Shown piece after piece: positions 5,170-27,224 of a stretch of DNA of 64,000 bases (positions are counted from its first letter, which is position 1; the number at the start of each line of letters is the position of its first letter). The stretch comes from Holophagales bacterium (GTDB lineage Bacteria; Acidobacteriota; Thermoanaerobaculia; Multivoradales; Multivoraceae), in assembly GCA_009837085.1 (NCBI GenBank), contig VXUF01000054.1, positions 88,705 to 152,704 on the forward strand, in the 5' to 3' direction. The notes under the pieces were generated by a model, which made no database searches, had not been told where the DNA came from, and saw only the letters and a program-made list of their open reading frames with translations. The position numbers and the translations under genes were made by a program.

Positions 5170-7839
5170 TTATGCCTTGGCTTCGTACCAGTCCGGGCCG
5201 GAGTCCATGTCGACGACGAGGGGAACCCTGAGGTCGGCGACTCCCTCCATCTCTTGGCGGACCAGGGACGCGAGTGCGTCCATGTCCGCCGATGGCGCTT
5301 CGAGGACGAGTTCGTCGTGGACGGTCAGGAGCAGTCGCGCGGCTCCGAGTTCCGACCGCAGGCGGCGGTCGACGGCGATCATCGCCAGTTTCAGCAGGTC
5401 GGCGGCCGTGCCCTGGATGCGGGCGTTGACGGCCATCCGGCGGGCGTTCTCGCGCACCGCCCGGTTGCGGCTCTTGATGTCGGGGATGTAGCGGACGCGG
5501 CCGTAGAGGGTCTCGACCTGGAGCGTCTCCTCGGCGCTGGACAGGGTCTGCTCGGTGTAGGCGCGCACGCCGGGGAAGCGCTCGAAGTAGGCCGCGATGA
5601 ACGCCTGGGCCTCGCCGCGGGCGATGCCCAGCGCGCGAGCCAGGCCGAAGGCGCTCATGCCGTAGATGATCCCGAAGTTGATCGTCTTCGAGGCGCGCCG
5701 CTGCTCATCGGTGACCAGGGCGGGCGCCACCCCGAACACGGTGGCCGCGGTCGAGCGGTGGATGTCGCCGCCATGCCGGAAGATGTCGACCAGGGCCTCG
5801 TCGCCCGAGATGTGCGCGAGCACGCGCAACTCGATCTGGCTGTAATCGGCGACCAGGAGCCGGTAACCGTCGCGGGCGCGGAAGGCGCGCCGTACCTCGC
5901 GGCCGATGTCGGTGCGAATCGGGATGTTCTGGAGGTTCGGGTCGTGCGAGGACAGCCGGCCGGTGGCGGCCACCGCCTGGTGGTAGCGGGTGTGGAGACG
6001 GCCGTCGGCGGCCACCAGGTGCGGCAGTGCATCGACGTAAGTCGACTTCAGCTTTGTCAGCTCCCTGTAGTGAAGCACCTTGGCCGGAAGATCGAAACCG
6101 CGCTGGGCGAGTTGCTCCAGCACGTCGGCGCCGGTGGAGTACTTCTTCGTCTTGCGAGTGCGGCCGAGCACCGGCAGCCCCAGCTTCTCAAACAGGATGA
6201 CGCCGAGCTGAGCCGGCGACTGGATGTTGAACCGTTCTCCAGCGAGGTCGAAGATCTCCTCAGCCAGGTCGCCGCTGTCCAGTTCGAGGCGCCGCGACAT
6301 CTCCGCCAGCACGCCGGAGTCCAGTTCGATGCCCTCCTCCTCCATCGCCGCGAGCACGGGCAGCAGGGGCGCCTCGATCTTCTCGTAGACCTCGCGTGCG
6401 CCCGGTGACTCGTGCCACTGCTCGGCCAGACCTCCGTGGATGAGCGCGGGCAGCACCGCCTGCTCGGCCGCGTAGAGACGCAGGCCGGCGTTGTCGCCGA
6501 GCGTGGCCTCGGGGCCATCGAGGCCCGCGTCGGCCGGCGTGGCGACGCTGTAGTGGAGGCGGTCGAGGGCCACCTCGGCCAGTCCAAAGCTCCGCACGGC
6601 CGAGCGCACCAGGTAGGCCATCAGCATCGTGTCGACGAGCCGCGCCGCAACCTCCGGCCTGCCGTCCCGGTGCGGACACAGGCGAACCACCTCCTTCAGG
6701 TCGTGGCCGATCAGTTCGAGGCCGGAGTCGGCCAGCCAGACGCGGACCTGGGCCGCCGCTACATCACGCAGATCGGCCGCCTCGAAACCGACGAAGCGGG
6801 CACGGTCCACCTCGACGTCGCCCTCGGCACCCTCCTTCACCGCTGCGAAGGAGAGCCCGGCCGGCTCGCCGCCGCGCCGGAAGACGACGTCGACCGCGAT
6901 CCGGGATCCCATCTCCCGCGCCGCTGCCTCGAACGCCTCGACGGAGTCCACGACGACGGCGGGCTCGATCTCCGGACCGCCGCTCTCGCTCTCGAGCTCC
7001 TTGAGCAGGCTCCAGAACTCGAACTCGCGGCACAGGTCGGCCAGCGCCTCGTAATCCGGGGACTCCATCTCTAGCGCCTCGGGCTCGAACGGAACATCGA
7101 GGTCCGTGTGGATCGTGACCAGCTCCCTGGACAGAAGGGCCTGATCGGCGTGCTCCTGCAGCCCCTCGCGGTAGGCCTTGCGCGTGAGTTCGGACGCGGC
7201 TTCCAGCAGCGCCTGGAGGTTGCCGTGCTCCCTGATCAGGGTCTGCGCGCCCTTCTGGCCGATTCCGGGGACGCCCGGCACGTTGTCCACCTTGTCCCCG
7301 ACCAGAGCGAGCACGTCGACCACCTGCTCCGGCGGCACCCCGAAGTCCTGCTCGACCAGCGCCGGATCGTAGGTCTTCTCGCGGCCCGTGTGGAGCAGCG
7401 ACACCCGGTCGCTCACGAGCTGAAACAGGTCCTTGTCCGCGCTGACGATCGTGACCTCATAGCCCGCGTCCTGCGCCTTGCGACCCAGCGTGCCGATGAC
7501 GTCGTCCGCCTCGTAGCGCTCGAGCTCGAGGATCGGGATGCGGAAGGCCTCGATCGCCCTCCGGATCGCGGGCATCTGCGCCTTGAGATCTTCCGGCATC
7601 GGGGCCCGGTTCGCCTTGTACTCGGCGTACGCCTCGGTGCGGACCGTCGCCCGTCCGACATCGAGCGCGATGCCGAGCTGCGCCGGCTCTTCCTCGCGCA
7701 GCAGCTTGCGCAGCATGTTGATGAAGCCGTAGATCGCGTTGGTCGGCTCTCCCGTCGACGTGGAGAGCCCGCGGATCGCGTAGAAGGCGCGGAAGATCGT
7801 CGAGTAGCCGTCGATCAGGTAGAGACGCTTCGCGGTCAC
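5170..7839 (-). CDS. polA: DNA polymerase I
   Basis: 889 aa. N-terminal 5'-3' exonuclease (LYLIDGYSTIFRAFYA). C-terminal pol A motifs (DYSQIELR, RRxAKxxNFGxxYG, VHDE). Confidence 0.97.
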   Translation of the reverse strand: MTAKRLYLIDGYSTIFRAFYAIRGLSTSTGEPTNAIYGFINMLRKLLREEEPAQLGIALDVGRATVRTEAYAEYKANRAPMPEDLKAQMPAIRRAIEAFRIPILELERYEADDVIGTLGRKAQDAGYEVTIVSADKDLFQLVSDRVSLLHTGREKTYDPALVEQDFGVPPEQVVDVLALVGDKVDNVPGVPGIGQKGAQTLIREHGNLQALLEAASELTRKAYREGLQEHADQALLSRELVTIHTDLDVPFEPEALEMESPDYEALADLCREFEFWSLLKELESESGGPEIEPAVVVDSVEAFEAAAREMGSRIAVDVVFRRGGEPAGLSFAAVKEGAEGDVEVDRARFVGFEAADLRDVAAAQVRVWLADSGLELIGHDLKEVVRLCPHRDGRPEVAARLVDTMLMAYLVRSAVRSFGLAEVALDRLHYSVATPADAGLDGPEATLGDNAGLRLYAAEQAVLPALIHGGLAEQWHESPGAREVYEKIEAPLLPVLAAMEEEGIELDSGVLAEMSRRLELDSGDLAEEIFDLAGERFNIQSPAQLGVILFEKLGLPVLGRTRKTKKYSTGADVLEQLAQRGFDLPAKVLHYRELTKLKSTYVDALPHLVAADGRLHTRYHQAVAATGRLSSHDPNLQNIPIRTDIGREVRRAFRARDGYRLLVADYSQIELRVLAHISGDEALVDIFRHGGDIHRSTAATVFGVAPALVTDEQRRASKTINFGIIYGMSAFGLARALGIARGEAQAFIAAYFERFPGVRAYTEQTLSSAEETLQVETLYGRVRYIPDIKSRNRAVRENARRMAVNARIQGTAADLLKLAMIAVDRRLRSELGAARLLLTVHDELVLEAPSADMDALASLVRQEMEGVADLRVPLVVDMDSGPDWYEAKA

Positions 7840-7908
7840 GGCGGCGACTACTCTAGAACCTCACGCCGTAGGATTGCGTTGCCCTACCGCGAACGGCCGC
7901 CGCAAGTC

Positions 7909-10900
7909 ATGCTTCGAAACCTCCCCGCCCTTGTTCTCCTCGCCGCGCTCGCTCCGGCGGCGGCGCCCGCGCAGCCGACCGAGGAACAGGTGCGGCTGCA
8001 TGGCATCGGCTACGCGCAACTCGAAAACGAGGACGCGGTCCAGGCCGAAGCGACCTATCGCCGGCTGATCGAACTGCTGCCCGAGGACTCGCTGGGCCAC
8101 GCCAATCTCGCCGTCGCTCTCCTGCGCCAGGACCAGCAGCAGGCGGCGCTGGCCGCGATCGACCGGGCGCTGGAACTGGGCGGCAACAGGGGCGATCTGC
8201 TGCTGATCCGCGCCGACGTTCTCCAGGGAGGCGCCGGCAGCAACGAAGAGGCGCTGGTGGACTACCGCCGCGCGGCCCGGGCCACGCCCGACGACCCCGA
8301 AGTGCAGTACGCCCTCTTCCGGCACGCCGAGATCATGAGCGGCCCCGAAGCCAAGGCCAATCTCCGGGCCGCCGTCGATCGTCTGCGGGCGCTCAGGCCG
8401 GACAACCTGGTCGTCCTGCTTCTAAGCGGAGCCGCCGCGCTGGAAGATGGCGACCGGGGACGCGCGAGCGACGACTACCTGCGGATCCGCGAGCTGCTCT
8501 GGCAGGCGCAGCCGGTTGCCGAGCGCGTCATCGAAGAGGTGCTCGACGCCCTGGAGACGGACGACCTGGAGCGCGCTCGCGCCTACGCTCCCCGGTTGCG
8601 GAACGTCCTGCTGGCGACTCCGGGCTGGCACAGCAGTCTGGCCGAGGTCTACACGAACATCCGGGGCATTCCGGTGGAGCGCTTCGTGGACGAGTCGCCG
8701 ATCGAAGACTTCGGCGAAGCGTTGCCGGTCCGCTTCCGGGCGATCCGAATCGACAATGCCCCGACTCCGAACCGGGCCCTGGAAGTCGCCGACTTCGACG
8801 GCGACGACCGGCCCGACATCGCGCGGGCCGCGACGGCCGGCGGCGGCGACTCGGCCGCACGTCTGGAGTTGCGGCGTGCCGGCGGGGGCTACGCGGCACC
8901 TGCTGTCGCGCCGGAAACCGGCGCTCGCGTCCTCGTGGTCGGCGACGCCGACAATGACCGCCAGCTCGACCTGATCGCGGTCGGCGACCCCCTGGCGGTC
9001 TGGCAGGTCGACGACACGCCGCGGTTCGCGGACGCCAGCGACCGCTTCCTGCCGAACGCAATGGCCGCGACCGCGGCCGACCTGCTCGACTTCGACAGCG
9101 ACGGCGACCTCGACCTGGCCGTCGCGCCGGCAGGCGGCACGCCCGAGTTGCTGCGGAACGTCTCCGGCGAAGGCGTTTTCGAAGGACCTCTCGAAGCCCT
9201 GGGACCAAAGGCGCTGCCCGACACCGAGGCGCGCAGCTACCACCACCTCCAGGCCACCGACGCCGATCGCGACGGCGACACCGATCTGCTGTTCGCTCAC
9301 GACGACGGCGTCCTCTGGCTCGACAACCAGCGCCAGGGACGGTTCGCGGAACGCGTCCCGCCGGCGCCGGGCCGCGGTTTCCTCGGCACGCTCCTGGGCA
9401 GACTGCGCGGCGACGAACCCGCAACCGGGGGGCTGACTACCGGATCGCCGGTGCGGGCCGTCCGCACTGCCGACCTCTCCGCTGACGGCGTTCCCGAGTT
9501 CCTTCTCGCCGGCGAGTCGACCCTCATCCTGAAGCGGGCCGAAGACGGAGCGGTGGCCCCCTTCCCCCTGACCTCCGAATCGACCGCCCTGCCCGGCAAC
9601 GCGACCGACCTGGCGCTGCTGGACGCGGACAACGACGGCCGCCGGGACATCGCCTTCGTGGCCGACGGCGAGCTCCGGGTGCTGACCCAGACCTCGAACT
9701 CGGGCGCCCCGGCGCTCGAGTTCCGGCTCGCCCAGGTCACCGGACTGCCCCGCGAGGCAGGGTTCACCGCCGTGAGGGCCGACGATCTGGACGGCGATGG
9801 CGATCAGGATCTCGTAGCTGCCGGCGCCACCGGGCTCTACCGCATCGAGAACCTGGACGGTTCGGAGAACAACTGGCTGCGGGTCCGGCTGGTCGGCCTC
9901 GATCTGGGGAACCAGAAGAACAACGTCTTCGGACGCGGCACGACGATCGAGGTCAAGTCGGAGCGCGCGTACCAGTACTTCGAGGTCGACCGACCGATCA
10001 CCCATATCGGACTCGGCAACCGCCGACGGCCCGACCTGATCCGCGTCGTCTGGGCCAACGGCGTGCCGCAGAACCGGCTGAACCCGGGCAGCGACCAGAC
10101 GATCGTCGAGGAGCAGGTACTCAAGGGCAGCTGTCCCTTCCTGTACACCTGGGACGGCGAGAAGGTCAGCTTCGTCACCGACCTGCTGTGGGGCGCGCCG
10201 CTCGGCATGCCGCTGGCCGACGGCGTCTGGAACGGCTACGACCCGGACGAACTCGTCCGGGTCGACGGCGCAACGCCCCGCGACGGCTTCTACGACCTGC
10301 GGATCACGGAAGAACTATGGGAGGCCGCCTACATCGACCGGGTGCGGCTCTGGGTGGTCGACCACCGCGAGGGCGTTGAAGTCGCCAGCAACCTCCGCAT
10401 CGTCCCGGGCCGGGGACACATCGGCAGGCCGTCCGACGAGGTCGTCTCAAGTGCCGTCGTCCGCCCCGTCGTTCACGCCATCGACGGACGCGGCCGCGAC
10501 GTGACGGAACGCATCCGGAGCCGCGACGAGGTCTACGCCGACGGCTACGAGCGCTCTCGCTTCCAGGGCCACGCCGCCGAGCCCTGGATCTTCACCTTCG
10601 ACCTCGGCGAAGCGCCCGGCAGGCCGGTGCGGCTCTGGCTGGACGGCTGGGTGTTTCCTGCCGACGCCAGCCTGAACCTCGCCATCGCCCAGGCGGTGGA
10701 GCACGGCGACCTGGAGATGGTCATGACCCGGCTCGAGGTCGAAACCGGGGACGGCTGGAAGACCCTGCTCGATCCGATGGGCTTCCCCCCGGGCAAGACG
10801 AAGACGATGGTCGTCGACACGCCGCCGCTGCCGGCGGGCGCCCGCAAGCTCCGGATCGTGACCACCCGCTGGCTGCATTGGGACCGCGTCGCATGGAGCA

Positions 10901-11445
10901 CCGACCTGGGCGGCACCGACGGCGACGCCGTCGTCATCCAGGCCCGGCTGGACGCGGCAAGCGCCGACCTCTCGTACCGCGGCTTCTCGGCACCGACCCG
11001 GCCCGCACCCAACGGCCCGCACCTGTTCGACTACCAGCGCACGGGCACCGAGTCCCCCTGGCTGCCCTTCCCCGGCCGGTACACCCGCTTCGGCGACGTC
11101 CGCGAGCTGCTCGCCGAGGTCGACGACCACCAGATCGTGATCGGCCCCGGCGACGAGATCCGGATCCTGTTCGATGCCCGGGATCTGCCGGCGCCTGCGC
11201 CCGGCCATATCCGAACCGTGTTCCTGGAGAGCTTCGGCTGGGACAAGGACGCCGACCGCAACACCTGGAAGGCGGACAGCAACCTGCCGCTACCCTTCCA
11301 GGCCATGTCCGGCTACCCGTTCGCGCCCGGCGAGGCCTATCCCCGAACGCCGGAACTCGACGCCTACCGCGCCGAGTGGCTGACCCGGGTGGTCGGCCCG
11401 GAGACGCCGTTCAGCCCGGTCCCGGCGCCCGCCTCGGGCCGCTGA
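7909..11445 (+). CDS. Secreted TPR + FG-GAP/VCBS repeat + ASPIC/UnbV domain protein (CRTAC1 family, fused form)
   Basis: Signal peptide (LVLLAALAPAAAPAQ). TPR region. Multiple DxDxDGxxD FG-GAP-like repeats. C-terminal UnbV_ASPIC-like block (NNWLRVRLVG...GRGTTIEV). The ATG at 7909 is in frame with the long ORF. Confidence 0.8.
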   Translation: MLRNLPALVLLAALAPAAAPAQPTEEQVRLHGIGYAQLENEDAVQAEATYRRLIELLPEDSLGHANLAVALLRQDQQQAALAAIDRALELGGNRGDLLLIRADVLQGGAGSNEEALVDYRRAARATPDDPEVQYALFRHAEIMSGPEAKANLRAAVDRLRALRPDNLVVLLLSGAAALEDGDRGRASDDYLRIRELLWQAQPVAERVIEEVLDALETDDLERARAYAPRLRNVLLATPGWHSSLAEVYTNIRGIPVERFVDESPIEDFGEALPVRFRAIRIDNAPTPNRALEVADFDGDDRPDIARAATAGGGDSAARLELRRAGGGYAAPAVAPETGARVLVVGDADNDRQLDLIAVGDPLAVWQVDDTPRFADASDRFLPNAMAATAADLLDFDSDGDLDLAVAPAGGTPELLRNVSGEGVFEGPLEALGPKALPDTEARSYHHLQATDADRDGDTDLLFAHDDGVLWLDNQRQGRFAERVPPAPGRGFLGTLLGRLRGDEPATGGLTTGSPVRAVRTADLSADGVPEFLLAGESTLILKRAEDGAVAPFPLTSESTALPGNATDLALLDADNDGRRDIAFVADGELRVLTQTSNSGAPALEFRLAQVTGLPREAGFTAVRADDLDGDGDQDLVAAGATGLYRIENLDGSENNWLRVRLVGLDLGNQKNNVFGRGTTIEVKSERAYQYFEVDRPITHIGLGNRRRPDLIRVVWANGVPQNRLNPGSDQTIVEEQVLKGSCPFLYTWDGEKVSFVTDLLWGAPLGMPLADGVWNGYDPDELVRVDGATPRDGFYDLRITEELWEAAYIDRVRLWVVDHREGVEVASNLRIVPGRGHIGRPSDEVVSSAVVRPVVHAIDGRGRDVTERIRSRDEVYADGYERSRFQGHAAEPWIFTFDLGEAPGRPVRLWLDGWVFPADASLNLAIAQAVEHGDLEMVMTRLEVETGDGWKTLLDPMGFPPGKTKTMVVDTPPLPAGARKLRIVTTRWLHWDRVAWSTDLGGTDGDAVVIQARLDAASADLSYRGFSAPTRPAPNGPHLFDYQRTGTESPWLPFPGRYTRFGDVRELLAEVDDHQIVIGPGDEIRILFDARDLPAPAPGHIRTVFLESFGWDKDADRNTWKADSNLPLPFQAMSGYPFAPGEAYPRTPELDAYRAEWLTRVVGPETPFSPVPAPASGR

Positions 11446-15414: not shown

Positions 15415-16122
15415 ATGAGATCCGCGCAAGCCATCCGCATGGAACCGCCACGCGAAGATCCTCCCCGGAGCGGTCTCACGATCGCGTACTCCCGCCATCA
15501 ACGCCAGGTGGCGTGGAGCGACGCATCCGACCTCGAACTCCTGGAGGGCCTTCGCCGCGACGACGATCTCGCGCTCGACGAGCTGATGCGCCGCAAGACG
15601 ACCCGGCTGGTTCAACTGGCCACCCGGCTGGTTGGCGATCGGGAAGACGCCCGCGACATCGTCCAGATTGCCTTCCTGCGGGTCTGGAACTCGCGGCATC
15701 GATTCGACCGCCGCTACAGCCCGAACACCTGGATCTACCGGATCGTCTCGAACCTCGCGATCGACCACCTGCGGTCCCGCTCCTCCCGCCTGCGCTCGCT
15801 GCAGAGTTTCCAGGTGCACCACGAGCATCAACGGGGAGAGACTTCCGCGCGGCAACTCGATTTACTCTCCGCCAGTGAAGTCCGGTCCGTGTTCCACGAA
15901 CTCGCCTCCACTCTGAGCGAGAAGCAGCGCGCCGTGTTCGTGCTGCGCGAGATGGAGGGGTTGGCCGGCAAGGAGATCGCCGGCATCCTCGGCATCCGTC
16001 CCTCGACCGTCCGCAACCACCTGTTCAACAGCCGCAAGCTGCTCCGCGAGGAGTTGCTCAGGCGATACCCCGAGTACGCGCAGAGAGCCGGAACCCGTGC
16101 CGGGAGAAAGGAGCGCCCATGA
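15415..16122 (+). CDS. ECF-family RNA polymerase sigma factor (sigma-70 regions 2 and 4)
   Basis: Region 2 (DIVQIAFLRVWNSRHRFD...WIYRIVSNLAIDHLR) and region 4 HTH (EKQRAVFVLREMEGLAGKEIAGILGIRPSTV). Confidence 0.9.
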   Translation: MRSAQAIRMEPPREDPPRSGLTIAYSRHQRQVAWSDASDLELLEGLRRDDDLALDELMRRKTTRLVQLATRLVGDREDARDIVQIAFLRVWNSRHRFDRRYSPNTWIYRIVSNLAIDHLRSRSSRLRSLQSFQVHHEHQRGETSARQLDLLSASEVRSVFHELASTLSEKQRAVFVLREMEGLAGKEIAGILGIRPSTVRNHLFNSRKLLREELLRRYPEYAQRAGTRAGRKERP

Positions 16123-16673
16123 CCTCTCTCTGCCCCGACTGGGCTGCCCTCCTCCGCGAACGCGAGCAAGCCGAACGGAGTTCGGAGGTCGGCGACGCGA
16201 CCGCGGACGCCGCCTGGGAAGACGCTCTCCGCCACCGGGAAGACTGCGAACGCTGCCGTAGGGCCTCGCTCGATGCGGATCCAGTGCTGCTGTTCAGCGG
16301 CAACTCCACCCGCGACGACGAGGAGGTCAGTGCGGGTGACATCGACGCGATCCGCCAGCGCGTGCGGCTCGAGCTCGACGGACGGGCGACCGAGAGACGC
16401 CTGAACGAGGCGCGGAGCGCCCGGCGACGGCTGCCCATGGCTTCGGTACTGGCCGCCGGCACCGCGGCCGCGGCGCTCGGCCTGAGTTTCCTGCTGTGGC
16501 CGGAGGCCGCGCCGCCGTCCGAAGAGATCGCGGACGCCACGGCGGTGCTGCCCGACCACATCGCGATGGCGCCGCTGGTCGAGCCGCTCGGCGACGAACC
16601 GCTGCAGGTCTACCAGCTTCCCGGCAACGGCGATGGGGACGGCCTCGACGTGGTCCTGGTGGTGGCGCCGTGA
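16119..16673 (+). CDS. Anti-sigma factor, zf-HC2 type, single TM
   Basis: ATGA overlap with the sigma gene. H-x3-C-x2-C motif (HREDCERC). One TM segment (ASVLAAGTAAAALGLSFLLW). Confidence 0.7.
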   Translation: MTSLCPDWAALLREREQAERSSEVGDATADAAWEDALRHREDCERCRRASLDADPVLLFSGNSTRDDEEVSAGDIDAIRQRVRLELDGRATERRLNEARSARRRLPMASVLAAGTAAAALGLSFLLWPEAAPPSEEIADATAVLPDHIAMAPLVEPLGDEPLQVYQLPGNGDGDGLDVVLVVAP

Positions 16674-17407
16674 GCGCCGTTGGCGCCTTTCGTCGGGCAC
16701 TGGCCGCCCTGCCCCTGCTGACGGCCGCCGGCACACTGCAGCCAGCCTTCGCGCAACCCGGAAACGCGCAGCAGGAGGCCGAGACCCAGATCCGCCACGC
16801 CTTCACGCTCCAGCATCAGCGAGCGGACGACGCCCTGGAGTGGATGCAGAACGAGATGTCGCCCCAGGGCACGATCGAACTGCAGCGAGCGACCAACACC
16901 CTGGTGTTGAGGGACCGGAGCAGCGTGCTCGAGCACCTGCTCGCCTTGCTGCGCGACTTCGACCACCCGCGCCAGCAGATCGAGTTCGAGATCTTCATCC
17001 TCGAGGCGTCGCGCCGCGGCAGCGGCGACCCGCGTTCCGAGCTGCCCGCGCAGCTCACCGACGAGCTGGGCAACTGGCTGGCCTTCACGAGTTACCGTTT
17101 GCTCGGTCAGGGCCAGTTCGAAGCGACAGAGGGCGAGGACGTCCGCTACGAGATCGGCACCGAGTTCCGGCTCAGCTTCCGGGTCGGCACCGTGCTGCTC
17201 GACCGCCGGCTCAAGCTGTACGGAGTCGAGATCGAACGTAGCCGCAGCGCCGTCCTCGACGAGCGAGTCTTCAACGGTCACCTCAACGTGTGGGTCGGGA
17301 AGCCGCTGGTCCTGGCTCTTCCCTATCGGGGATCCGACGCCAGTGGCCTGGTGGTCGCCGTGACTGTACGGTCTCCCCGGGAAGACGGCCTGGGCGCCGG
17401 CGACTAG
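16670..17407 (+). CDS. Periplasmic protein with a single Secretin_N-like domain (no secretin beta-barrel)
   Basis: GTG start overlapping the upstream stop. Signal peptide ending AFA-Q. The segment ATNTLVLRDRSSVLEHLLALLRDFD..QIEFEIFILEAS matches the Secretin_N pattern. Confidence 0.65.
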   Translation: MSAVGAFRRALAALPLLTAAGTLQPAFAQPGNAQQEAETQIRHAFTLQHQRADDALEWMQNEMSPQGTIELQRATNTLVLRDRSSVLEHLLALLRDFDHPRQQIEFEIFILEASRRGSGDPRSELPAQLTDELGNWLAFTSYRLLGQGQFEATEGEDVRYEIGTEFRLSFRVGTVLLDRRLKLYGVEIERSRSAVLDERVFNGHLNVWVGKPLVLALPYRGSDASGLVVAVTVRSPREDGLGAGD

Positions 17408-17421
17408 GAGCGGATCGGGTC

Positions 17422-18659
17422 ATGCAGTTCGTCTGCCGGCTTGGCACCGCCGACGGTCGCATCGTGGAGCAGATCCACGAGGCGCCGGACCTGCGCACCG
17501 CGCGTCGCGAGATCGAGCGCCGCGGACTGTACATCTTCGAGATCAGGCGCCGCGGACTGCAGCACCTCTTCGGGTCGCTTCTGGGCGCGGGTTCGGCCAC
17601 CGGCGAGGGCGGCCGCAAGGCGATCCCGGGACAGGACTTCCTGATCTTCAACCAGCAGTTGGCGGGCCTGCTCAGCGCGGGACTGCCCCTGCTCCAGTGC
17701 CTGGACCTGCTGTGCGAGCGACAGCGCCACGCCGCCTTCAAGGAGGCGCTGAGCGACATCCGGGACCGCGTCGAGAGCGGCGAGGAGCTCTCCGAGGCCT
17801 TTGCGGGCGCGGGGAACTCGTTCCCGCCGATCTACAGCTCGATGCTCAAGGCGGGTGAGCAGAGCGGCGGACTGGAACGGGTCATTCGCCGGTACGTCCG
17901 CCAGCTCAAGCTGGTCACGAGCTCCCGCAAGCGGGTGGTCAGCGCGTTCTTCTACCCGGCCCTCCTGATCTGCCTGTCCGTCGGCATCGTGGCGGTGATG
18001 ATGTTCTTCGTCATGCCCCGCTTCGAGGAGTTCTACGTGGCGCTCGATCTCGATCTTCCCTGGATCACCCAACTCCTCCTCGCCATGTCCCAAGTGCTGC
18101 GCAGTCCGACCACGCTGGTGCTGATGGCCGCAGCAGCGGTCGCGATCTGGGCAAGCTGGAGGATTGGCAGAAGCGGCCGGATCGGTGCCCTGGTCGACCG
18201 CCTGAAACTGCGGTTGCCCATCATCGGGCCGATCTTCCACCGCTTCGCGCTGTCCGAGTTCTGCCGCTCCCTGGCCACCCTGCTGCACGGCGGCCTGCCA
18301 CTCGCCGCGGCGCTCGAAACCGCGGCGTCGGCCGTCACGAACCGGTTCCTGCACCAGCGGGCGGTGGCGCTCGGGCCGCGCATCCGCGAGGGCGAGGCTT
18401 TCCACATGGCGCTCGAAGAATCGGGGGTGTTCACCGACCTGGCGATCGACATGGTCAAGGTCGGCGAAGCGACCGGAGCCCTGGACGAGATGGTGAACAG
18501 CGTTTCCGACTTCCTCGACGAGGATGTCGAGACCCGGACCGAGCGGCTCCTCTCGCTCGTGGAGCCCGTCATGCTGGTCGTCATGGGCTGCACCATCGCA
18601 TTGCTCGTGCTCTCGATGTACCTGCCGCTCTTCAGCGTACTGGGACAGGTGCAGGGCTG

Positions 18660-18660
<1 letters not shown>
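17422..18660 (+). CDS. gspF: Type II secretion / type IV pilus platform protein GspF/PilC family
   Basis: Two T2SSF repeats, 3 TM segments. ATG at 17422 with AGGAG 11 nt upstream. Confidence 0.9.
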
Positions 18661-20345
<1,685 letters not shown>

Positions 20346-21317
20346 GCGCCTCGCCGGCCTCGACGAGCCTCGAGGACCGGCGTCGGTGTTCCTGCTCGAC
20401 GAGCGCGAACTCGTCCTGGCGCACTTCGTTCGCCAGAGCGGTCCCACGCCCGAGCTACAAGCCGTTCGGCGACGGGAACTGCCCGCCGACACGTTCCAGG
20501 AGGGGGCGCTGGGCGGGCCGTTGCGAGAGCCCGCCCAGTTCCACGACGTCGTCGCCGAGCTCCAGCAGGCGGCCGATACAGCCACCGGGGCTCAGGTCAC
20601 CGCCGCCGCACTCGTCCTCCCGGACCGCTGGCTGCGGCTGACGTTCGCGGAACTCGAGGACGTGCCCCGGGGTCCGCAGCATCGCGAGGAGGCCCTCCGC
20701 TTCAAGTTGCGCAAGCAGGTCCCCTTCCGGGTAGAGGAGTTGCGTGTCCGCGGCGCCCGGACCGGAAACGGCACCGGCGAGTCCGCGCGTTTTCTGATCG
20801 CCTTCGGCGTCGAGCGCGTACTGGCCCAGATCGAGGACTCGTTCCGCCGTGCCGGGATTCACATCGGAATGGTCACGAACGCCAGTCTCGGCGCCGTGAA
20901 CGGCATCCGGCAGGTGCACGACGTTAGCGGCGCGTTCCTGCTTGTACTTGCCCACCGCGACGGCTACTCCCTCCTGGCGCACACGGAGGACGGCCCCGCC
21001 CTCTACCGCTACAAGAACTTCGACCCGGCACTTCCTCCCTCGGTCGCTTCCCGACTGGCGGTGCGCGAGCTGCGGCTGACCAGGAGCTTCATCGAGGAGC
21101 GCGGCCTGTTCGGCGCCGAGGCCGGTCTGCCCGAGCACGTTCTGATGCTGGCGGCCGAAGCGTGCCGGGGAACCTGGCGCGAACGGCTCGAGAACGGCCT
21201 GGGGCTACCAGCCCGCGTTCTCGACGACAATACGACCTCCGGCAGCGGAACCGAGGCCGGAGACCTCGAACTCGACCGCGCCCTGCCGATGCTGGGTGCT
21301 TCGCTCGCGGTGAGGAC

Positions 21318-21971
21318 GTGAGCAGGTTCCTGAACCTTGCGGCCCGACCGTTCGTCAACCGCCGCCCCTGGCGCCGGCTGACCGCCCTGCTGTGGGCACT
21401 CGGCCTCGCCCTGCTGACCCTGAACGCGGTGCTGTACTGGGGCTACCTCACCGGCTCAGCCGACGCCCGCGCTGAACTTGCGGGGCTACGGGAGCAGCTC
21501 GCCGGAGACCAGACCGAACTCGACCGGCTGAGCGCCGAACTTACGCGTCTCGACCTGGAGGCGCAGAACCGCGAAGTCACGTTCCTGAACGAGCGCATCG
21601 CGGACCGGCGCTTCCCCTGGGGACAACTCTTCAACGACATCGAGGAAGCGTTGCCGTGGAACACACGTCTGCGAAGTCTGGCGCCCGAGCGCGGCGACCG
21701 GAACCGGCGGCGACGAACGGACTTTGGAACCGGTGACCGGTCCCGAGTGGTCCTCGACCTGACCGGCGAAGCCCGGGACGACCAGGGTCTGCTCGACCTG
21801 ATCGACGCCCTCTTCGAGCATCCTGCCTTCGACGATCCCAAGCTGCTCCACGAGAGCCGGCAGGACGCCGGCCCACTGGACTTCACCATCGCCGTCGTCT
21901 ATCTGCCTGGCGGTTCGCCCGGCAACACCGCGGAGACCGCAGCAGCGGCACCTGCGGAGGTCCAGCCGTGA
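21318..21971 (+). CDS. pilN: PilN-like bitopic membrane protein
   Basis: GTGA overlap. N-terminus LNLAARPFVNRRPWRRL followed by a TM segment, then a coiled-coil, as in PilN/GspL-periplasmic. Confidence 0.65.
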   Translation: MSRFLNLAARPFVNRRPWRRLTALLWALGLALLTLNAVLYWGYLTGSADARAELAGLREQLAGDQTELDRLSAELTRLDLEAQNREVTFLNERIADRRFPWGQLFNDIEEALPWNTRLRSLAPERGDRNRRRRTDFGTGDRSRVVLDLTGEARDDQGLLDLIDALFEHPAFDDPKLLHESRQDAGPLDFTIAVVYLPGGSPGNTAETAAAAPAEVQP

Positions 21972-22549
21972 GACGGCGGCGGCGCGTCTGGCGCCTGCGC
22001 ATCTGGTTCTGGGTCGGCGCGGGCCTGTGCGTCCTCAACGCGGCCCTGCTCTCCACCTACCGCGGCGTCTACGCCGGCCGCTTTCAGGCGCTCGAGGACG
22101 AGATCGCACAAGTCCAGAACCTGCGCACCCGGGCCACGCAGGAGGTGGCCCGCCGCGAGGGCCAGGTGACGACGGTCGAGGCGACCCGCAGCCAGGTGCG
22201 GACCCTGTACCGCGAGGGCTTCGCGACCGAACGCGAACGGTTGACCGACCTGATCGGCGAGGTCAAGGAACTGGCCGGCCGCTCGGGCCTCCGGCCCGGT
22301 TCGATCTCATACCCGGAAGCGACCCTGGAGCAGTATGGCCTGGTCGAGAAGTCGATCGTGTTCACGGTCGAGGGGAACTACCGTCAGTTGCGTGGGCTGG
22401 TCAACCTGCTCGAGGTCACGGACACGTTCGTCGCCCTCGAGTCGATCAGCCTGAGCGAGGCGGCGCCCAACCTGCGTATCGATCTCCGGCTGTCGACCCT
22501 GTTCTCCGGCAACGAGTCCCGGACTTCCCGGCAGGAGGCGGGTGCATGA
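21968..22549 (+). CDS. pilO: PilO-like bitopic membrane protein
   Basis: GTGA overlap. Arg-rich N-terminus plus TM, coiled-coil, and a C-terminal domain resembling PilO/GspM. Confidence 0.6.
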   Translation: MRRRRRVWRLRIWFWVGAGLCVLNAALLSTYRGVYAGRFQALEDEIAQVQNLRTRATQEVARREGQVTTVEATRSQVRTLYREGFATERERLTDLIGEVKELAGRSGLRPGSISYPEATLEQYGLVEKSIVFTVEGNYRQLRGLVNLLEVTDTFVALESISLSEAAPNLRIDLRLSTLFSGNESRTSRQEAGA

Positions 22550-23145
22550 GCGCCAGCCAGGCAAGCTCCAACCGCCCGAACCCGCTGCTGCTGGGACTGC
22601 TCGGCGTCGTCGCGTTGATCGCCGCGTGGCGCTACCTGCCGTCGTTCGGTGGCGGCCCCGGCTTCACGCGCACGACCGCGGCCGACCTGCGTTCGACGAC
22701 GATCGACGTCGTCGAACTCAGCGCCTACATCCTCGGCCAGGCGCCACCGCCCAGCCGGCCGACGCGGGACCCATGGTCCTTCGGAGCCCGGCCCGCCCCA
22801 GAGGCGACCGGCGCCGAGCCGGAAGCGCCTCCGCCCCCCGAACCGCCGCGACCCGCCATTCCCGAGACTGCCGTCCTACCGGAGAAACCGGCGCCGGAAC
22901 CGCTCGGAACCCAGCCACCGCCGGTCGACGTTTTCTACATCGGGTCTTTCGGACGCAGCGACAATCCGATCGCGGTCTTCATCGACGCCGACAAGTCCAT
23001 CTTCAACGCACTCGAGGGCGACCTCGTCAAGGACAAGTTCGAAGTGCAGAACATCGGCTACGAGTCGGTCGATCTGCTCTTCGTGGGTTTCCCGGACGAA
23101 CGGCCGGTGCGGCTCGCCATCGGCGGCCGACCGAGCGGCAGCTAA
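22546..23145 (+). CDS. pilP: PilP-like protein (TM anchor, Pro-rich linker, C-terminal beta domain)
   Basis: ATGA overlap with GGAGG upstream. TM segment LLLGLLGVVALIAAW. The Pro-rich linker and C-terminus (VFYIGSF...AVFIDADKSIF...) resemble PilP. The alternative frame 22542-23153 is Arg-rich nonsense. Confidence 0.6.
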   Translation: MSASQASSNRPNPLLLGLLGVVALIAAWRYLPSFGGGPGFTRTTAADLRSTTIDVVELSAYILGQAPPPSRPTRDPWSFGARPAPEATGAEPEAPPPPEPPRPAIPETAVLPEKPAPEPLGTQPPPVDVFYIGSFGRSDNPIAVFIDADKSIFNALEGDLVKDKFEVQNIGYESVDLLFVGFPDERPVRLAIGGRPSGS

Positions 23146-23158
23146 GGACCTGAACCAC

Positions 23159-25594
23159 ATGAACAAACAAGATCGACAACCAAGGCAGCGACAACGGCGG
23201 CACGCTCTCTCGCTGGGACTCGCGATGCTCCTGATCCTCGCTTCCTGCAGTGGCTATCGGAGCTTCCGGGAGGCGCAGCATTCCGAGCTCACGGGCGACT
23301 GGGATACCGCCGTTCTGCGCTACATGGAGCTCGTCACCGCCGACCCGGCGGATCTCCGCTACCGGGCCGGCCTGCTGCGAGCCAAGACCCAGGCCGCTCA
23401 CGCCCACTTCGAAGCGGGCAGGAAGCTGCAGGAGGCTGGCCGCGATCGGGACGCGATGCTCGAGATGCAGCGAGCCGTGCAGCTCGATCCGACCAACCAG
23501 TACGCCCTGACCGAACTCGAGAAGCTCCGTACGAAGATAGAGACCAGCGGCCTCCAGCCCAGGACCATCTCCCAGATGAAGGACGACGCTCGCGCCGCCG
23601 AGCCGATGCCGCCGACGCTCAGTCCATTGTCCGACGAGCCGGTCAGCTTCGACTTCCCGAACGCGACGTTCATGGAGGTCTATCGGGCGATCGGCCAGGC
23701 TTTCGGGATCAACATCGTCTTCGACACGCGGCTGCGCGACGCACCCGTCGGGACCGAGGGCATCGAGCTACGCGACGTGACGGCAATCGAGGGTCTCGAG
23801 ATCCTGATGCACAGTCTCGGCCACTTCTACCGGGTGCTCGATGAGCAGACGATCATGATCCTCCAGGACACGCAGCAGAACCGGCAGCGGTTCGAGGATC
23901 GCATCATCCAGACGTTCTTTCTCTCGAACTCGGACGTGAAGGACGTGATGACCATCCTGCGCAGCCTGCTGAACACGAGGTTCATCGCGACCAACGAACG
24001 GCTGAACGCGATCGCCATGCTGGACAGCGTGGAGAAGGTCAAGATCGCTCAACGGTTGATCGAGCAGAACGACAAGGCAAAGGCCGAAGTCGTCGTCGAC
24101 GTGGAACTGCTCCAGATAGACACAGCGAAGCTCCAGGAGCTCGGCCTGTCGCTGGACGCGAACCGTCTCGGCATCAGTCTCGACATCGGCGGCGAGGAGG
24201 TGCCCCTCCGGTTGTCGGACGTGGAGTCCCTGAATCAGAACAACTGGGTGCTGACCGTGCCCGGCTTCCTGTTCGATTTCGTCAAGAACGCGACGGATGC
24301 GCAGACCCTGGCCAAACCGCAGGTTCGGATCACCGAAGGTGAGCAGGCGTCCTTCTCGATCGGCGACCGCGTGCCGGTCCCGGTCACCAGCTTCAACACC
24401 GCGAACACGGCGGGCAGCAACATCGTGCCGATCACCTCCTACCAGTACCAGAACGTCGGCATCGACGTGCAGATCACACCACGGGTGCATCACAACGAAG
24501 AGGTCTCGCTCACGCTCAACATCGAGGTCAGCAACATCAGCGGCCAGATCGAAAGCCAGCCGATCATCGGCAGCCGCAACATCGAGACCAGCATCCGGCT
24601 GCGGGACGGTGAGACGAACTTCCTGGCCGGGTTGATCCGTACGTCCGAGACGAACAGTCAAGGCGGCATTCCCGGGCTGTCCGAGATCCCCGTGCTGGGG
24701 CGTCTGTTCTCCCGGCGTTCGACCGACAACAAGCGCACCGACATCGTGCTGACCCTGACGCCCCACATCATCCGGCGCGCGGACATCCGGGAGGAGGACC
24801 TCGCTCCGATCTGGGTCGGCACGGAGAGCAACGTCGTCTACCGAGGCTCGAGCCCGAGGATCGACTCCGGGGTCGACGGGCCCTTCGACGAACCGGCTAC
24901 GGAGAGCGGGGCGCGCGACGAACTCCAGGAACGGCTGCCGCCGGGCCTGCGGGACGCGGCGCCAGAAGGCGGACAGTCACAGGGCGAAGAAGACGATGGA
25001 CCGCCGCTGGGTGTTGAGTTGGTACCGCCGCCCGGAAACCCGCAGCGCAACGCCGGCCGGCTCGACTCCCAACCGGCCCCCGATTCCACACAGATCATCG
25101 TGCCTGCGGCACTCCAGGAACAGGCCGCCCGCTCTACAGCCGAAATCGAGCTGACCTTCGCCCCCGAAGCACTGCGCGCAAGTGTCGGCGACAGTTTCGA
25201 GGTGCGGCTCGACGTCCGGTCCACGGCACCGCTTTCCCACCTGCCGTTGCGGCTGCGCTTCGACCCGTCGCTGATCGAAGTCACCGCGGTGCGGGCGGGG
25301 TCCTTCCTGGGCGACGACGAGGAGATCTCGCTCATGACCAACGAGTCGACCCCGGGCATGGTCGTCGTGGGCCTTAGCCGGCTCGGCGACCGGCCGGGCG
25401 TAGCCGGCCGCGGACGTCTGCTGGCGCTCGAGGTGCGGGCCGTCGATCCGGGGACGGCGACGATCGCTGTCGAGCAGGCCAGGCCCAAGGGCCCGGCTCT
25501 CGAGGAGCTGGCCTCGCCCGACGTTCAGCCGCTCGAGATCGAGATCCGGGACGGAGAGGGTCCGGATCGTGAACGGCCGGAGACGGTCGCATGA
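23159..25594 (+). CDS. Secretin (PilQ/GspD family) lipoprotein with N-terminal TPR-like region and C-terminal cohesin-like domain
   Basis: Lipobox LLILASC. TPR-like segment. Secretin_N repeats. Secretin domain (GGIPGLSEIPVLGRLF, VLTLTPHII). The roughly 150-aa C-terminal extension (EIELTFAPE...FEVRLDV...LRLRFDPSLIEVTAV) is cohesin-like. Confidence 0.88.
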   Translation: MNKQDRQPRQRQRRHALSLGLAMLLILASCSGYRSFREAQHSELTGDWDTAVLRYMELVTADPADLRYRAGLLRAKTQAAHAHFEAGRKLQEAGRDRDAMLEMQRAVQLDPTNQYALTELEKLRTKIETSGLQPRTISQMKDDARAAEPMPPTLSPLSDEPVSFDFPNATFMEVYRAIGQAFGINIVFDTRLRDAPVGTEGIELRDVTAIEGLEILMHSLGHFYRVLDEQTIMILQDTQQNRQRFEDRIIQTFFLSNSDVKDVMTILRSLLNTRFIATNERLNAIAMLDSVEKVKIAQRLIEQNDKAKAEVVVDVELLQIDTAKLQELGLSLDANRLGISLDIGGEEVPLRLSDVESLNQNNWVLTVPGFLFDFVKNATDAQTLAKPQVRITEGEQASFSIGDRVPVPVTSFNTANTAGSNIVPITSYQYQNVGIDVQITPRVHHNEEVSLTLNIEVSNISGQIESQPIIGSRNIETSIRLRDGETNFLAGLIRTSETNSQGGIPGLSEIPVLGRLFSRRSTDNKRTDIVLTLTPHIIRRADIREEDLAPIWVGTESNVVYRGSSPRIDSGVDGPFDEPATESGARDELQERLPPGLRDAAPEGGQSQGEEDDGPPLGVELVPPPGNPQRNAGRLDSQPAPDSTQIIVPAALQEQAARSTAEIELTFAPEALRASVGDSFEVRLDVRSTAPLSHLPLRLRFDPSLIEVTAVRAGSFLGDDEEISLMTNESTPGMVVVGLSRLGDRPGVAGRGRLLALEVRAVDPGTATIAVEQARPKGPALEELASPDVQPLEIEIRDGEGPDRERPETVA

Positions 25595-26061
25595 GGACCG
25601 CCGGCGCGTGGCGAAGAGCCGGCTACACGCTGGTCGAGCTGGTCACGGTCTGTGCCGTCATGCTGGTCCTGGCCGCTGTCGCCCTGCCGACCGCGACCTA
25701 CACGAACAAGAGAATCAAGGAAGCAGAACTGCGCTCCCACCTCCGCCAGATGCGCAACGCGATCGACGAGCACAAGCGCTACAGCGATGTCGGGCTCATC
25801 CCGATCGAGATCGGCACTGACGGCTATCCAAGTGAACTCGAGAACCTGGTGGCGCCCATCCAGCTCATCGGGCAGGCCGAGGGCGAGATCCGTTTCCTCC
25901 GCCGCATCCCCGTCGACCCGATGACCGGCGAGGCGGCGTGGGGGCTGATGAGCTACCAGGATGACCCCGACAACCGTTCGTGGGGAGGCGAGAACGTCTA
26001 CGACGTGTACTCCCTGAGCAACGGCGTCGGTCTGAACCGGGTCCCCTACCGGGAGTGGTGA
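25591..26061 (+). CDS. gspG: GspG-like pseudopilin (prepilin-type N-terminus)
   Basis: Prepilin leader with G/YTLVELV and Glu at +5. C-terminus ...RRIPVDPMTG...W like GspG. Confidence 0.8.
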   Translation: MRTAGAWRRAGYTLVELVTVCAVMLVLAAVALPTATYTNKRIKEAELRSHLRQMRNAIDEHKRYSDVGLIPIEIGTDGYPSELENLVAPIQLIGQAEGEIRFLRRIPVDPMTGEAAWGLMSYQDDPDNRSWGGENVYDVYSLSNGVGLNRVPYREW

Positions 26062-26062
26062 A

Positions 26063-26512
26063 ATGAACGAACGCCTCCGCACCCAGCGCCCAGGGCCCCA
26101 GGGCGGCATGTCTCTGCTGGAACTCATCATCGTGATGGCGATCATCGGCATCCTCGCCGCCGTCGCCGTGCCGCTGCTCAAGAACGCACCCCGGCGGGCG
26201 CAGGAGGCAGCCCTCAAGCAGAACCTCCGTGTCATGCGCGACGCGATCGAGCAGCACTACGCCGACAAGGGTCACTATCCGCCGAGCCTCCAGGCGCTCG
26301 TCGAGGAGGAGTACTTGCGGGCCATCCCGCCCGACCCGATTACCCGCAGCACCGAGACCTGGGTCGAGGTGCTGGCCGAGTTCCCTTCGGCAACCGACGA
26401 AGAGCCCTGGGCCGAGACCGACCTTTCGCAGTTCGGGGATCCGGGAGTCGAGGACGTCCACTCCGGCTCGGAGGAAAGCTCGCTGACCGGGGAGGCTTAT
26501 GCCGACTGGTGA
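26063..26512 (+). CDS. gspG: GspG-like major pseudopilin
   Basis: Leader ...QGG/MSLLELIIVMAIIGILAAVAVP. GspG-like core (HYPPSLQALVEEEYLRAIPPDP). Confidence 0.85.
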   Translation: MNERLRTQRPGPQGGMSLLELIIVMAIIGILAAVAVPLLKNAPRRAQEAALKQNLRVMRDAIEQHYADKGHYPPSLQALVEEEYLRAIPPDPITRSTETWVEVLAEFPSATDEEPWAETDLSQFGDPGVEDVHSGSEESSLTGEAYADW

Positions 26513-27224
26513 CCGCAGGCGCCGCGGCGAGCGGCGCCGGGACGACTCAGCCGAGGCCGGCTACAACCTGGTGGCCCTGGCCATCCTGATCACGGTGATG
26601 AACATCGCAGTCGCGGCAGCACTGCCCTACTGGAGCAGCTGGGCTCAGCGACAGAAGGAAGCCGAACTCATCTTCCGCGGCTTGCAGTACGCCGAGGCGA
26701 TCCGGATCTTTCGTGTCCGTCAGGGACGCCTGCCGACGGCGCTCGAGGAACTGGTCGAAGTACACCCGCGGGCGATTCGTCAACTGTGGCCCAATCCGAT
26801 GGCCGAGGACGGCCGCTGGGGACTGCTGATGCAGGGGGGAGCGAGCAGCACCGATCGGCGCGGCAACCAGAACGACGACGACGAACCGGCGAGCAACGCC
26901 GCGGCCATCGCGGCTGCCGGCGGCGGCGCGATGACCGCCGTTCCGCCGCCGAACGAGGAAGAGGGTGAAGAAACCGTCGTCGGGCCGATCCTTGGGGTCT
27001 ACAGCGCGACGCCCGGTCCCTCGAAGCGCGTCTTCAACGGCCAGCAGGATGTCGGTGACTGGTACTTCACCAGCGAACTGATCCAGCTCAGGCCCGGCAA
27101 CGCCGCCGACGGTCGGCCGCCGCCGCGGCTGACCAGCGAGTGGATCGGCAAGCCGTTCCCGCCTGGAGTGCTCGACGGCCCCAGGGTTCAGGACGGCACG
27201 GCGCCCGGCAGAGAGGCCCGTTGA
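26499..27224 (+). CDS. Atypical minor pseudopilin-like protein (prepilin-like TM, no Glu5, Gly/Asn/Asp-rich linker)
   Basis: N-terminus ...EAG/YNLVALAILITVMNIAVAAALP has Ala at +5. Downstream is a low-complexity Gly/Asp stretch. Confidence 0.55.
   Translation: MPTGDRRRRGERRRDDSAEAGYNLVALAILITVMNIAVAAALPYWSSWAQRQKEAELIFRGLQYAEAIRIFRVRQGRLPTALEELVEVHPRAIRQLWPNPMAEDGRWGLLMQGGASSTDRRGNQNDDDEPASNAAAIAAAGGGAMTAVPPPNEEEGEETVVGPILGVYSATPGPSKRVFNGQQDVGDWYFTSELIQLRPGNAADGRPPPRLTSEWIGKPFPPGVLDGPRVQDGTAPGREAR

Follow-up and report, generated by a model that had tools for sequence, protein, structure and literature searches.

A Secretin with a Predicted Lipid Anchor, a TPR Module and a C-Terminal Cohesin Domain in Thermoanaerobaculia (Acidobacteriota)

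The Secretin Gene and the Layout of Its Product

The window analyzed here is a stretch of 64,000 nucleotides from a Holophagales bacterium (contig VXUF01000054.1, positions 88,705 to 152,704, forward strand), and all positions refer to it. The gene at 23159–25594 encodes a protein of 811 amino acids (aa) which, judging by its sequence, constitutes the outer-membrane secretin in a divergent machine of the type IV filament kind, resembling type II secretion systems (T2SS) and type IV pili (T4P), of a symbiont from the class Thermoanaerobaculia (Acidobacteriota). The exact protein is recorded in GenBank as MXZ37725.1, a "hypothetical protein" of a Holophagales metagenome-assembled genome. The mechanically called open reading frame (ORF) begins at a GTG at 22649, upstream of the ATG at 23159. 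Since the preceding gene stops at 23145, AAGGA lies approximately 10 nt 5' of the ATG and the N-terminus MN(K/E)..RQ is common to the homologues, 23159 was taken as the real start.

A preliminary description of this gene had reported a lipobox, a tetratricopeptide repeat (TPR)-like N-terminus, Secretin_N repeats and a cohesin-like C-terminus. The strings that it quoted were all found in the protein by direct reading: LLILASC at aa 24–30, EIELTFAPE at aa 662–670, VRLDVRS at aa 682–688 and LRLRFDPSLIEVTAV at aa 697–711. None of the lipobox, TPR, Secretin_N, secretin and cohesin features is a chance match. The layout is as follows, with model confidence given as pLDDT, the predicted score of the local distance difference test.

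23159–25594 (+): secretin gene, 811 aa, ATG at 23159 and TGA at 25592–25594; read from the sequence
23159..23248 (+): aa 1–30, signal peptide with lipobox L-A-S-C, Cys30 being the predicted lipidated residue, with Ser at +2; direct reading and conservation in relatives
23249..23551 (+): aa 31–131, TPR module, about 2.5–3 repeats, all helical; Pfam, family profile and AlphaFold
23552..23632 (+): aa 132–158, conserved Pro-rich connector with K141, P151, P152, L154 and P156 invariant; family alignments, low pLDDT
23633..23878 (+): aa ~159–240, N0-like periplasmic domain; beta-alpha-beta fold in AlphaFold with pLDDT ~85, NCBIfam HofQ alignment starting at aa 159
23909..24085 (+): aa 251–309, single Secretin_N domain (N1/N3-type); Pfam PF03958, E 4.5e-7, 30.4 bits against a cut-off of 28.2
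24284..24775 (+): aa 376–539, secretin pore domain; Pfam PF00263, E 9.6e-42, 142.9 bits against a cut-off of 27.5, the structural domain starting from ~aa 310
24776..25033 (+): aa 540–625 (~85 aa), conserved post-secretin tail, candidate S-domain analogue; invariant columns in a 61-sequence alignment
25034..25138 (+): aa 626–660, variable disordered linker rich in P/A/E/G; pLDDT <50 and composition
25139..25558 (+): aa ~661–800, cohesin domain, nine-strand beta jelly roll, type-I-like; Pfam, PDB profile, AlphaFold and Foldseek

The C-Terminal Cohesin and Its Linker

The cohesin proposed at the C-terminus was recovered by Pfam scans of the domain and of its homologues, by profile comparison with PDB and by structure prediction combined with Foldseek, all in agreement. 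In the full-length protein, the Pfam Cohesin model (PF00963) matched aa 673–761 with E 2e-4 and 22.0 bits against a cut-off of 24.1; the C-terminal 157 aa taken alone scored 25.6 bits, over that gathering score. The same model matched 33 of 35 diverse homologous domains (best E 2.2e-10). A profile of these 35 domains gave 17 matches among all PDB sequences, 14 of them cohesins, including the non-cellulosomal Archaeoglobus cohesin 2XDH; the other three were dismissed as weak chance matches. The family motifs are S-H-L-P at aa 693–696 and G-x-S-R-L-G at aa 738–743.

AlphaFold, run on the domain with the 35-domain alignment, returned a nine-strand beta sandwich with a mean pLDDT of 89.7 and a predicted TM-score (pTM) of 0.81, and aa 660–800 reached pLDDT 91–97 in the full-length monomer model, which was built from a 61-sequence alignment. 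The top 50 Foldseek matches in PDB were all cohesins (probability 1.00, E down to 7.5e-11, identity 10–19%), with TM-scores of 0.58–0.77 and root mean square deviations (rmsd) of 2.0–6.6 Å (0.72–0.77 and 2.0–2.5 Å for the ten best). The best among them were type I cohesins. The domain alone combines the score demanded by PF00963 with the nine-stranded jelly-roll fold of that family, and by sequence and model it is a genuine cohesin fold. The outcome that would have spoken against the preliminary description, a disordered C-terminus with neither a cohesin nor an Ig-like match, was not seen, the AlphaFold model being ordered.

Aligned by hhalign with a cohesin of Clostridium thermocellum CipA (essentially 1AOH and close to 1OHZ), the invariant H-x-P of the SHLP motif coincided with N-x-D of strand 3, which we take to be Asn37 and Asp39, the residues of 1OHZ in contact with the dockerin. 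As a lead only, the canonical cohesin binding face may thus be conserved with a different chemistry.

From the GPFD motif of the tail to the first cohesin strand, 117 homologues have 74 to 454 residues (median 99), and the linker probably acts as a flexible tether.

The Lipobox and the TPR Module

The predicted lipoprotein signal reads MNKQDRQPRQRQRRHALSLGLAMLLILAS-C30. The claim of a lipobox was borne out by the conservation of L-A-S-C30, as 111 of 121 members of the secretin family fit a strict pattern of Cys after a hydrophobic stretch. In the N-termini inspected, the Cys is followed by a conserved SGYR..REAQ.AE.GDWD motif, except for two whose long N-terminal extensions probably stem from wrongly called starts. 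An invariant Cys ending the signal peptide, the mark of HxcQ-type liposecretins, is present here. No separate pilotin gene was found in the secretin gene cluster.

The TPR-like character of the N-terminus also held. Pfam detected TPR_2 in the single sequence at aa 80–113 with E 0.008, and a 26-sequence profile of aa 30–160 matched designed consensus TPR proteins in PDB with E from 1e-25 to 1e-9, natural TPR proteins coming next; because the family profile matches consensus TPR proteins, the module was considered genuine. In the full-length model, the region is helical over aa 8–131, with pLDDT 84–96 over aa 31–131. A lipoprotein signal followed by a TPR array, the combination characteristic of the TPR pilotins PilF, PilW and Tgl, is likewise present. 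Among NCBIfam models of TPR lipoproteins there were weak matches to TraC (6e-9) and Tgl (E 0.014). The TraC match was rejected as a sign of kinship, as it reflects the layout of an outer-membrane lipoprotein with three TPRs common to both (PMC8546572).

The N-Domains, the Pore and the Post-Secretin Tail

The protein has what characterizes the secretin superfamily: a pore domain over the curated score, periplasmic N-domains upstream of it and type IV filament genes alongside. Secretin_N itself was confirmed, but the repeats of it mentioned in the preliminary description were not, since Pfam, NCBIfam and AlphaFold detected one Secretin_N plus an N0-like domain. Among PDB sequences, the pore domain matched T2SS GspD best (E 7e-20) and PilQ less closely (2e-11). 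In NCBIfam, TIGR02517 (GspD) was the top match with 146.2 bits, under its equivalog cut-off of 351.35, and TIGR02515 (PilQ) gave 95 bits against a cut-off of 284.35, so that the protein belongs to neither family. The GspD layout of N0–N3 with a short C-terminal pilotin-binding S-domain was not found, and Pfam detected in the secretin no AMIN domain of the kind that marks PilQ of type IVa pili. The secretin sheets were modeled with moderate pLDDT.

The tail following the pore is strongly conserved. Its invariant residues in 61 sequences, approximately 50% identical overall, include D547, L548, W552, G554-T555-E556, G574-P575-F576 and L593-P594. In the monomer model, approximately aa 548–659 mostly had pLDDT <50, and aa 535–660 matched no PDB sequence at E <= 10. 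The tail may be a barrel-associated analogue of the S-domain, possibly of a new type, that might become ordered only in the oligomer.

Distribution of the Architecture and Losses of the Cohesin

A large protein search yielded 3175 relatives among the scored candidates, and the C-terminal domain was present in 116 of the best 120. Many relatives carry a precomputed PF00963 match, and NCBI has given one of them the name "cohesin domain-containing protein". In a collection with one genome per species, at least 593 stretches contain a relative. The best 80 of these are nearly all from Acidobacteriota, mostly from Thermoanaerobaculia and "Candidatus Multivorans", and a cohesin was matched in all but one of them, a cohesin-less genome, one match being cut by a contig end. 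Counted over the window and 84 related loci, the cohesin is present in 82 of 85 records. The architecture, called unusual in the preliminary description, is so in comparison with the secretins of model organisms; in Thermoanaerobaculia, judging by the same best 80 loci, it is the standard one.

Homologues of approximately 50% identity have the same gene order, which extends even to the dUTPase, DUF179 and aconitase genes at the flanks; this implies that the fusion is old and normal for the class, and that the architecture and its gene cluster have been passed on vertically. The cohesin profile found 12,536 matches among 1.84 billion representative proteins. The best-scoring non-secretin cohesin proteins that were checked are multi-cohesin surface proteins with type IX secretion system (T9SS) tails, dockerins, VWA, PKD or Kelch domains, and all secretin–cohesin fusions among the checked matches look like members of this secretin family. 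Long candidates for multi-cohesin secretins were rejected as unrelated surface proteins (T9SS tails, VWA, Kelch, PKD), and those short matches of 170–450 aa that were checked as free-standing cohesins turned out to be fragments of secretins at contig ends.

Orthologues of 77–83% identity in three genomes with chromosomes of ~3.7 Mb (P0062–P0064) end shortly after the conserved tail, without a cohesin, whereas the cohesin-bearing genomes have ~4.2–5.5 Mb. Degraded remnants of the cohesin were detected in P0062 and P0065. At the loci of P0062 and P0064, every other gene of the cluster is kept in order, including the overlap with the pseudopilin gene. Since the cohesin-less orthologues keep the whole cluster and the tail, the cohesin is an accessory module not needed for the core machine, and because no gene of the cluster vanishes together with it, its partner, if any, ought to be encoded elsewhere.

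As far as our literature searches reach, no description of a secretin–cohesin fusion was found; the TPR–secretin–cohesin architecture is recognizable in databases and, within the same reach, apparently undescribed.

The Gene Cluster

The secretin gene lies in a cluster with the following genes, all on the same strand.

15415–16122 (+): extracytoplasmic function (ECF) sigma factor; from sequence
16119–16673 (+): putative anti-sigma factor; from sequence
~16673–17407 (+): small secreted protein of ~244 aa with a Secretin_N/N1-like domain; NCBIfam N-domain matches
17422–18660 (+): GspF-like platform protein; Pfam T2SSF 1.9e-58, NCBIfam GspF 8.5e-92, under the equivalog cut-off
18660–20345 (+): GspE/PilB-like ATPase with an MshEN N-domain; T2SSE 6e-130, MshEN 2.4e-16, GspE 1e-163, under the equivalog cut-off
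20314–21321 (+): gene in the PilM/GspL position; no family match
to 21971 (+): PilN-like gene; weak Pfam PilN match, 0.0025
21968–22549 (+): PilO/GspM-like gene; weak Pfam PilO match, 0.024, and NCBIfam GspM 2e-5
22546–23145 (+): gene in the PilP/GspC position; transmembrane segment, Pro-rich linker and small beta domain, from sequence
25591–26061, 26063–26512 and 26499–27224 (+): pilin/pseudopilin genes 1–3; Pfam N_methyl, and NCBIfam GspG-like for the first two

NCBIfam matches across the cluster all remained under the equivalog cut-offs. To judge from these matches, the machine is a divergent system of the type IV filament kind whose sequences lean towards T2SS, and it lies outside the curated families of T2SS and type IVa pili. 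The genes in the PilM/N/O/P positions are four, small and bitopic, and their order is the same in four homologous loci (L001–L004). The stop codon of the secretin overlaps the start of the first pseudopilin gene (ATGA, 25591–25594), also in the cohesin-less orthologues, and this stop–start overlap points to translational coupling of the pore and the pseudopilin.

The first two pilin-like proteins have G|xxxxE prepilin signals. The third, without a family match, has Ala and not Glu at +5 after the predicted cleavage site, and it carries an acidic Gly-rich insert (…RRGNQNDDDEPASN…EEEGEE…).

The sigma/anti-sigma pair lies directly 5' of the secretion cluster, a position kept in L001–L004 at ~50% identity, which suggests that the machine is under envelope-signal control. 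The MshEN domain in MshE binds cyclic di-GMP (c-di-GMP), and its presence on the ATPase may mean c-di-GMP regulation of the machine. The small secreted protein is similar only to the N-domain parts of the GspD and PilQ models (GspD 86–169, E 2.7e-7) and lacks a pore domain. Its place immediately 5' of gspF is kept in L001, L003 and L004, where the upstream order of sigma factor, anti-sigma factor and small secreted protein is the same; the protein could belong to the periplasmic ring as a further component or stand in for GspC.

Further away in the window, at 7108–11445 and 45963–51996, there are large FG-GAP/VCBS-repeat proteins, one with ASPIC/UnbV, and a 709-aa multi-TPR protein.

Discussion

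Resemblance to Known Systems

Type II and type III secretion, type IV pili and the export of filamentous phages all share a secretin as their gate in the outer membrane. The closest known relative of the pore described here is GspD (PDB 5WQ7, 5WQ8, 5W68), as the best pore match and as the system whose GspE-, GspF-, GspM- and GspG-like genes recur in the cluster. In place of N0–N3, however, the protein has N0 and one Secretin_N, preceded by a lipidation signal and TPRs; instead of a short S-domain it continues into a tail, a linker and a cohesin, and its alignment genes are PilMNOP-like rather than GspC/L/M-like. In HxcQ, to our knowledge, there is neither a TPR module nor a cohesin. The likeness to HxcQ consists in a lipoprotein signal of its own, with lipidation predicted here, and in a cluster lacking a dedicated pilotin gene; HxcQ is cited as the known self-piloted liposecretin independent of a pilotin (PMC12475490).

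The N-terminus recalls the type IVa pilus pilotins PilF, PilW and Tgl, as well as TadD of Tad pili, in which an outer-membrane lipoprotein signal and a short TPR array are likewise tied to a secretin. Those are separate proteins, whereas here the module is fused in cis and, by the NCBIfam Tgl model and the 60 PDB matches listed, shows no specific sequence kinship to PilF, PilW or Tgl. The C-terminus shares its fold with type I cohesins and the A. fulgidus cohesin (4DH2, 6KGC, 1G1K, 2XDH, 1OHZ; TM-score 0.72–0.77, rmsd 2.1–2.5 Å) at an identity of 11–19%, and differs from them in having H-x-P in place of the N-x-D of strand 3 and in being fused to a Gram-negative outer-membrane pore, probably on its periplasmic side. 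Lineage-specific modules around a secretin are also described for the Deinococcus radiodurans T2SS, as the belt DR_1364 and the cap DR_0940 (PMC10828601); these are separate added proteins, in contrast to the fused domains and the flexibly tethered cohesin found here.

A Model for the Working of the Secretin

The reading that we prefer, with a probability of roughly 0.55, is that of a liposecretin which pilots itself by means of a TPR module resembling a pilotin, and whose ring of tethered cohesins, probably periplasmic, docks a partner encoded elsewhere. Self-piloting and the tethering of a partner at the outer membrane had been proposed in the preliminary description. The lipid anchor would route the secretin to the outer membrane through the Lol pathway and, given the predicted lipidation, would together with the TPR module make up a built-in pilotin acting in cis. 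The TPR module might clamp the conserved C-terminal tail outside the barrel, in the way pilotins clamp S-domains. Such a clamp is plausible because the geometry puts both the lipid-anchored TPR module and the tail outside the barrel, under the membrane. Solved secretin rings consist of 12–15 subunits. The ring would carry one cohesin per subunit on flexible tethers of ~75–450 residues under the outer membrane, and the cohesins would dock a partner not encoded nearby, either for capture or retention of cargo or for attachment of the pore to another component of the envelope. Docking would be an accessory function, outside pore assembly. The C-terminus would emerge on the periplasmic side, as in T2SS-type secretins. 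On the cell surface, the C-termini of type II and type III secretion secretins escaped detection (PMC4453517), and since the pore is T2S-like in sequence and T2S C-termini are not surface-exposed, the cohesins were placed in the periplasm.

Several results weigh against parts of this model. For the T4P secretins BfpB and PilQ, C-termini outside the cell were reported (PMC4453517), and the alignment genes of the cluster are PilMNOP-like and not GspCLM-like, which leaves some probability that the cohesin is exposed on the surface. As for the pilotin part, only generic or consensus TPR proteins were found among the 60 PDB matches listed, with no specific kinship to PilF, PilW or Tgl, and the Tgl family model NF033762 scored 14.8 bits against a cut-off of 225. 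The AlphaFold model, being that of a monomer, is uninformative on a contact between the TPR module and the tail.

The search for a docking partner was also negative. A home-made hidden Markov model of dockerins, an approximate one made of four dockerins from proteins found here and three cellulosomal ones, gave nothing better than E 1.9 among the 16,979 ORFs of the window and the 84 related loci (1.47 Mb). In the six frames of the window, a regular-expression search for EF-hand-like dockerin loops hit only FG-GAP/VCBS loops at 47–49 kb, which look Ca-binding; these were discarded as dockerin candidates, as the proteins are FG-GAP and ASPIC/UnbV ones. Pfam detected no dockerin in ten cluster neighbors.

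Alternative Roles of the Cohesin

Beyond the docking of some partner, the ring could be a working cohesin platform that feeds tagged periplasmic cargo to the channel or holds exported enzymes at the surface, which we regard as doubtful. If this were true, a Gram-negative secretion pore would for the first time be seen to contain a recruitment system based on cohesins. The partner, encoded at some other place in the genome, would have a dockerin or else a cohesin ligand of a new kind, and the surface variant would give a diderm sponge symbiont a display that is cellulosome-like in minimal form.

An unlikely alternative gives the domain a structural or glycan-related role, the jelly roll binding peptidoglycan or exopolysaccharide, or belting the secretin, and so stabilizing or positioning the pore. 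AMIN domains in PilQ and the additional belt protein of the Deinococcus T2SS are precedents, and the cohesin fold is a jelly roll like that of many carbohydrate-binding modules. The secretin contains neither AMIN nor any other wall-binding domain recognizable by Pfam or NCBIfam, and no dockerin partner was found in the 85 neighborhoods, which favors this alternative. Decorated secretins with belts and caps exist (PMC10828601). Still, the top 50 structural matches are all cohesins and not carbohydrate-binding modules, a disordered tether of 75–450 residues is better suited to a capture module that moves about than to a rigid belt, and the loss of the domain in close relatives with no other change in the cluster argues against structural necessity.

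The display of the cohesins on the surface seems less probable still. Here the ring would stand outside the cell and anchor dockerin-bearing exoproteins exported by the same machine, as a cellulosome-like scaffoldin built into a secretin. The domain is a bona fide type-I-like cohesin, the same profile also picks up surface proteins in which several cohesins occur together with T9SS sorting domains and dockerins, and the linker, being long and flexible, could reach across the membrane region; the extracellular C-termini of the T4P secretins BfpB and PilQ offer a precedent (PMC4453517). Yet the pore is closer to T2SS GspD than to PilQ, and T2S secretin C-termini are not detectable on the surface (PMC4453517). 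A dockerin gene was found in none of the 85 neighborhoods, and the tail seems to resemble a segment associated with the barrel, like an S-domain, and not one that passes through the membrane.

That the cohesin is a decaying passenger, a historical fusion functionless today in this organism, is very improbable, for although at least three related genomes, with smaller chromosomes, have lost it or keep it in degraded form, its invariant motifs (SHLP, D48, GxSRLG and others) persist across homologues 22–45% identical in the domain, its pLDDT is ~90 and it is kept in 82 of 85 records.

Significance

The targeting of secretins to the membrane and the selection of their cargo are incompletely understood, and this family presents two natural experiments in a phylum whose cell envelope has hardly been studied by experiment. 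In the first, the pore carries, fused in cis, a TPR lipoprotein module that resembles a pilotin; in the second, a cohesin, so far the hallmark of extracellular enzyme scaffolds, is tethered to the pore. If the cohesins recruit cargo or retain exoproteins, T2SS-like machines would handle substrates by a principle new to them, and assembly by means of cohesins would reach as far as the Gram-negative envelope. Otherwise, the analysis would still provide a useful annotation for thousands of "hypothetical proteins" in the abundant Acidobacteriota of soils, sediments and sponges.

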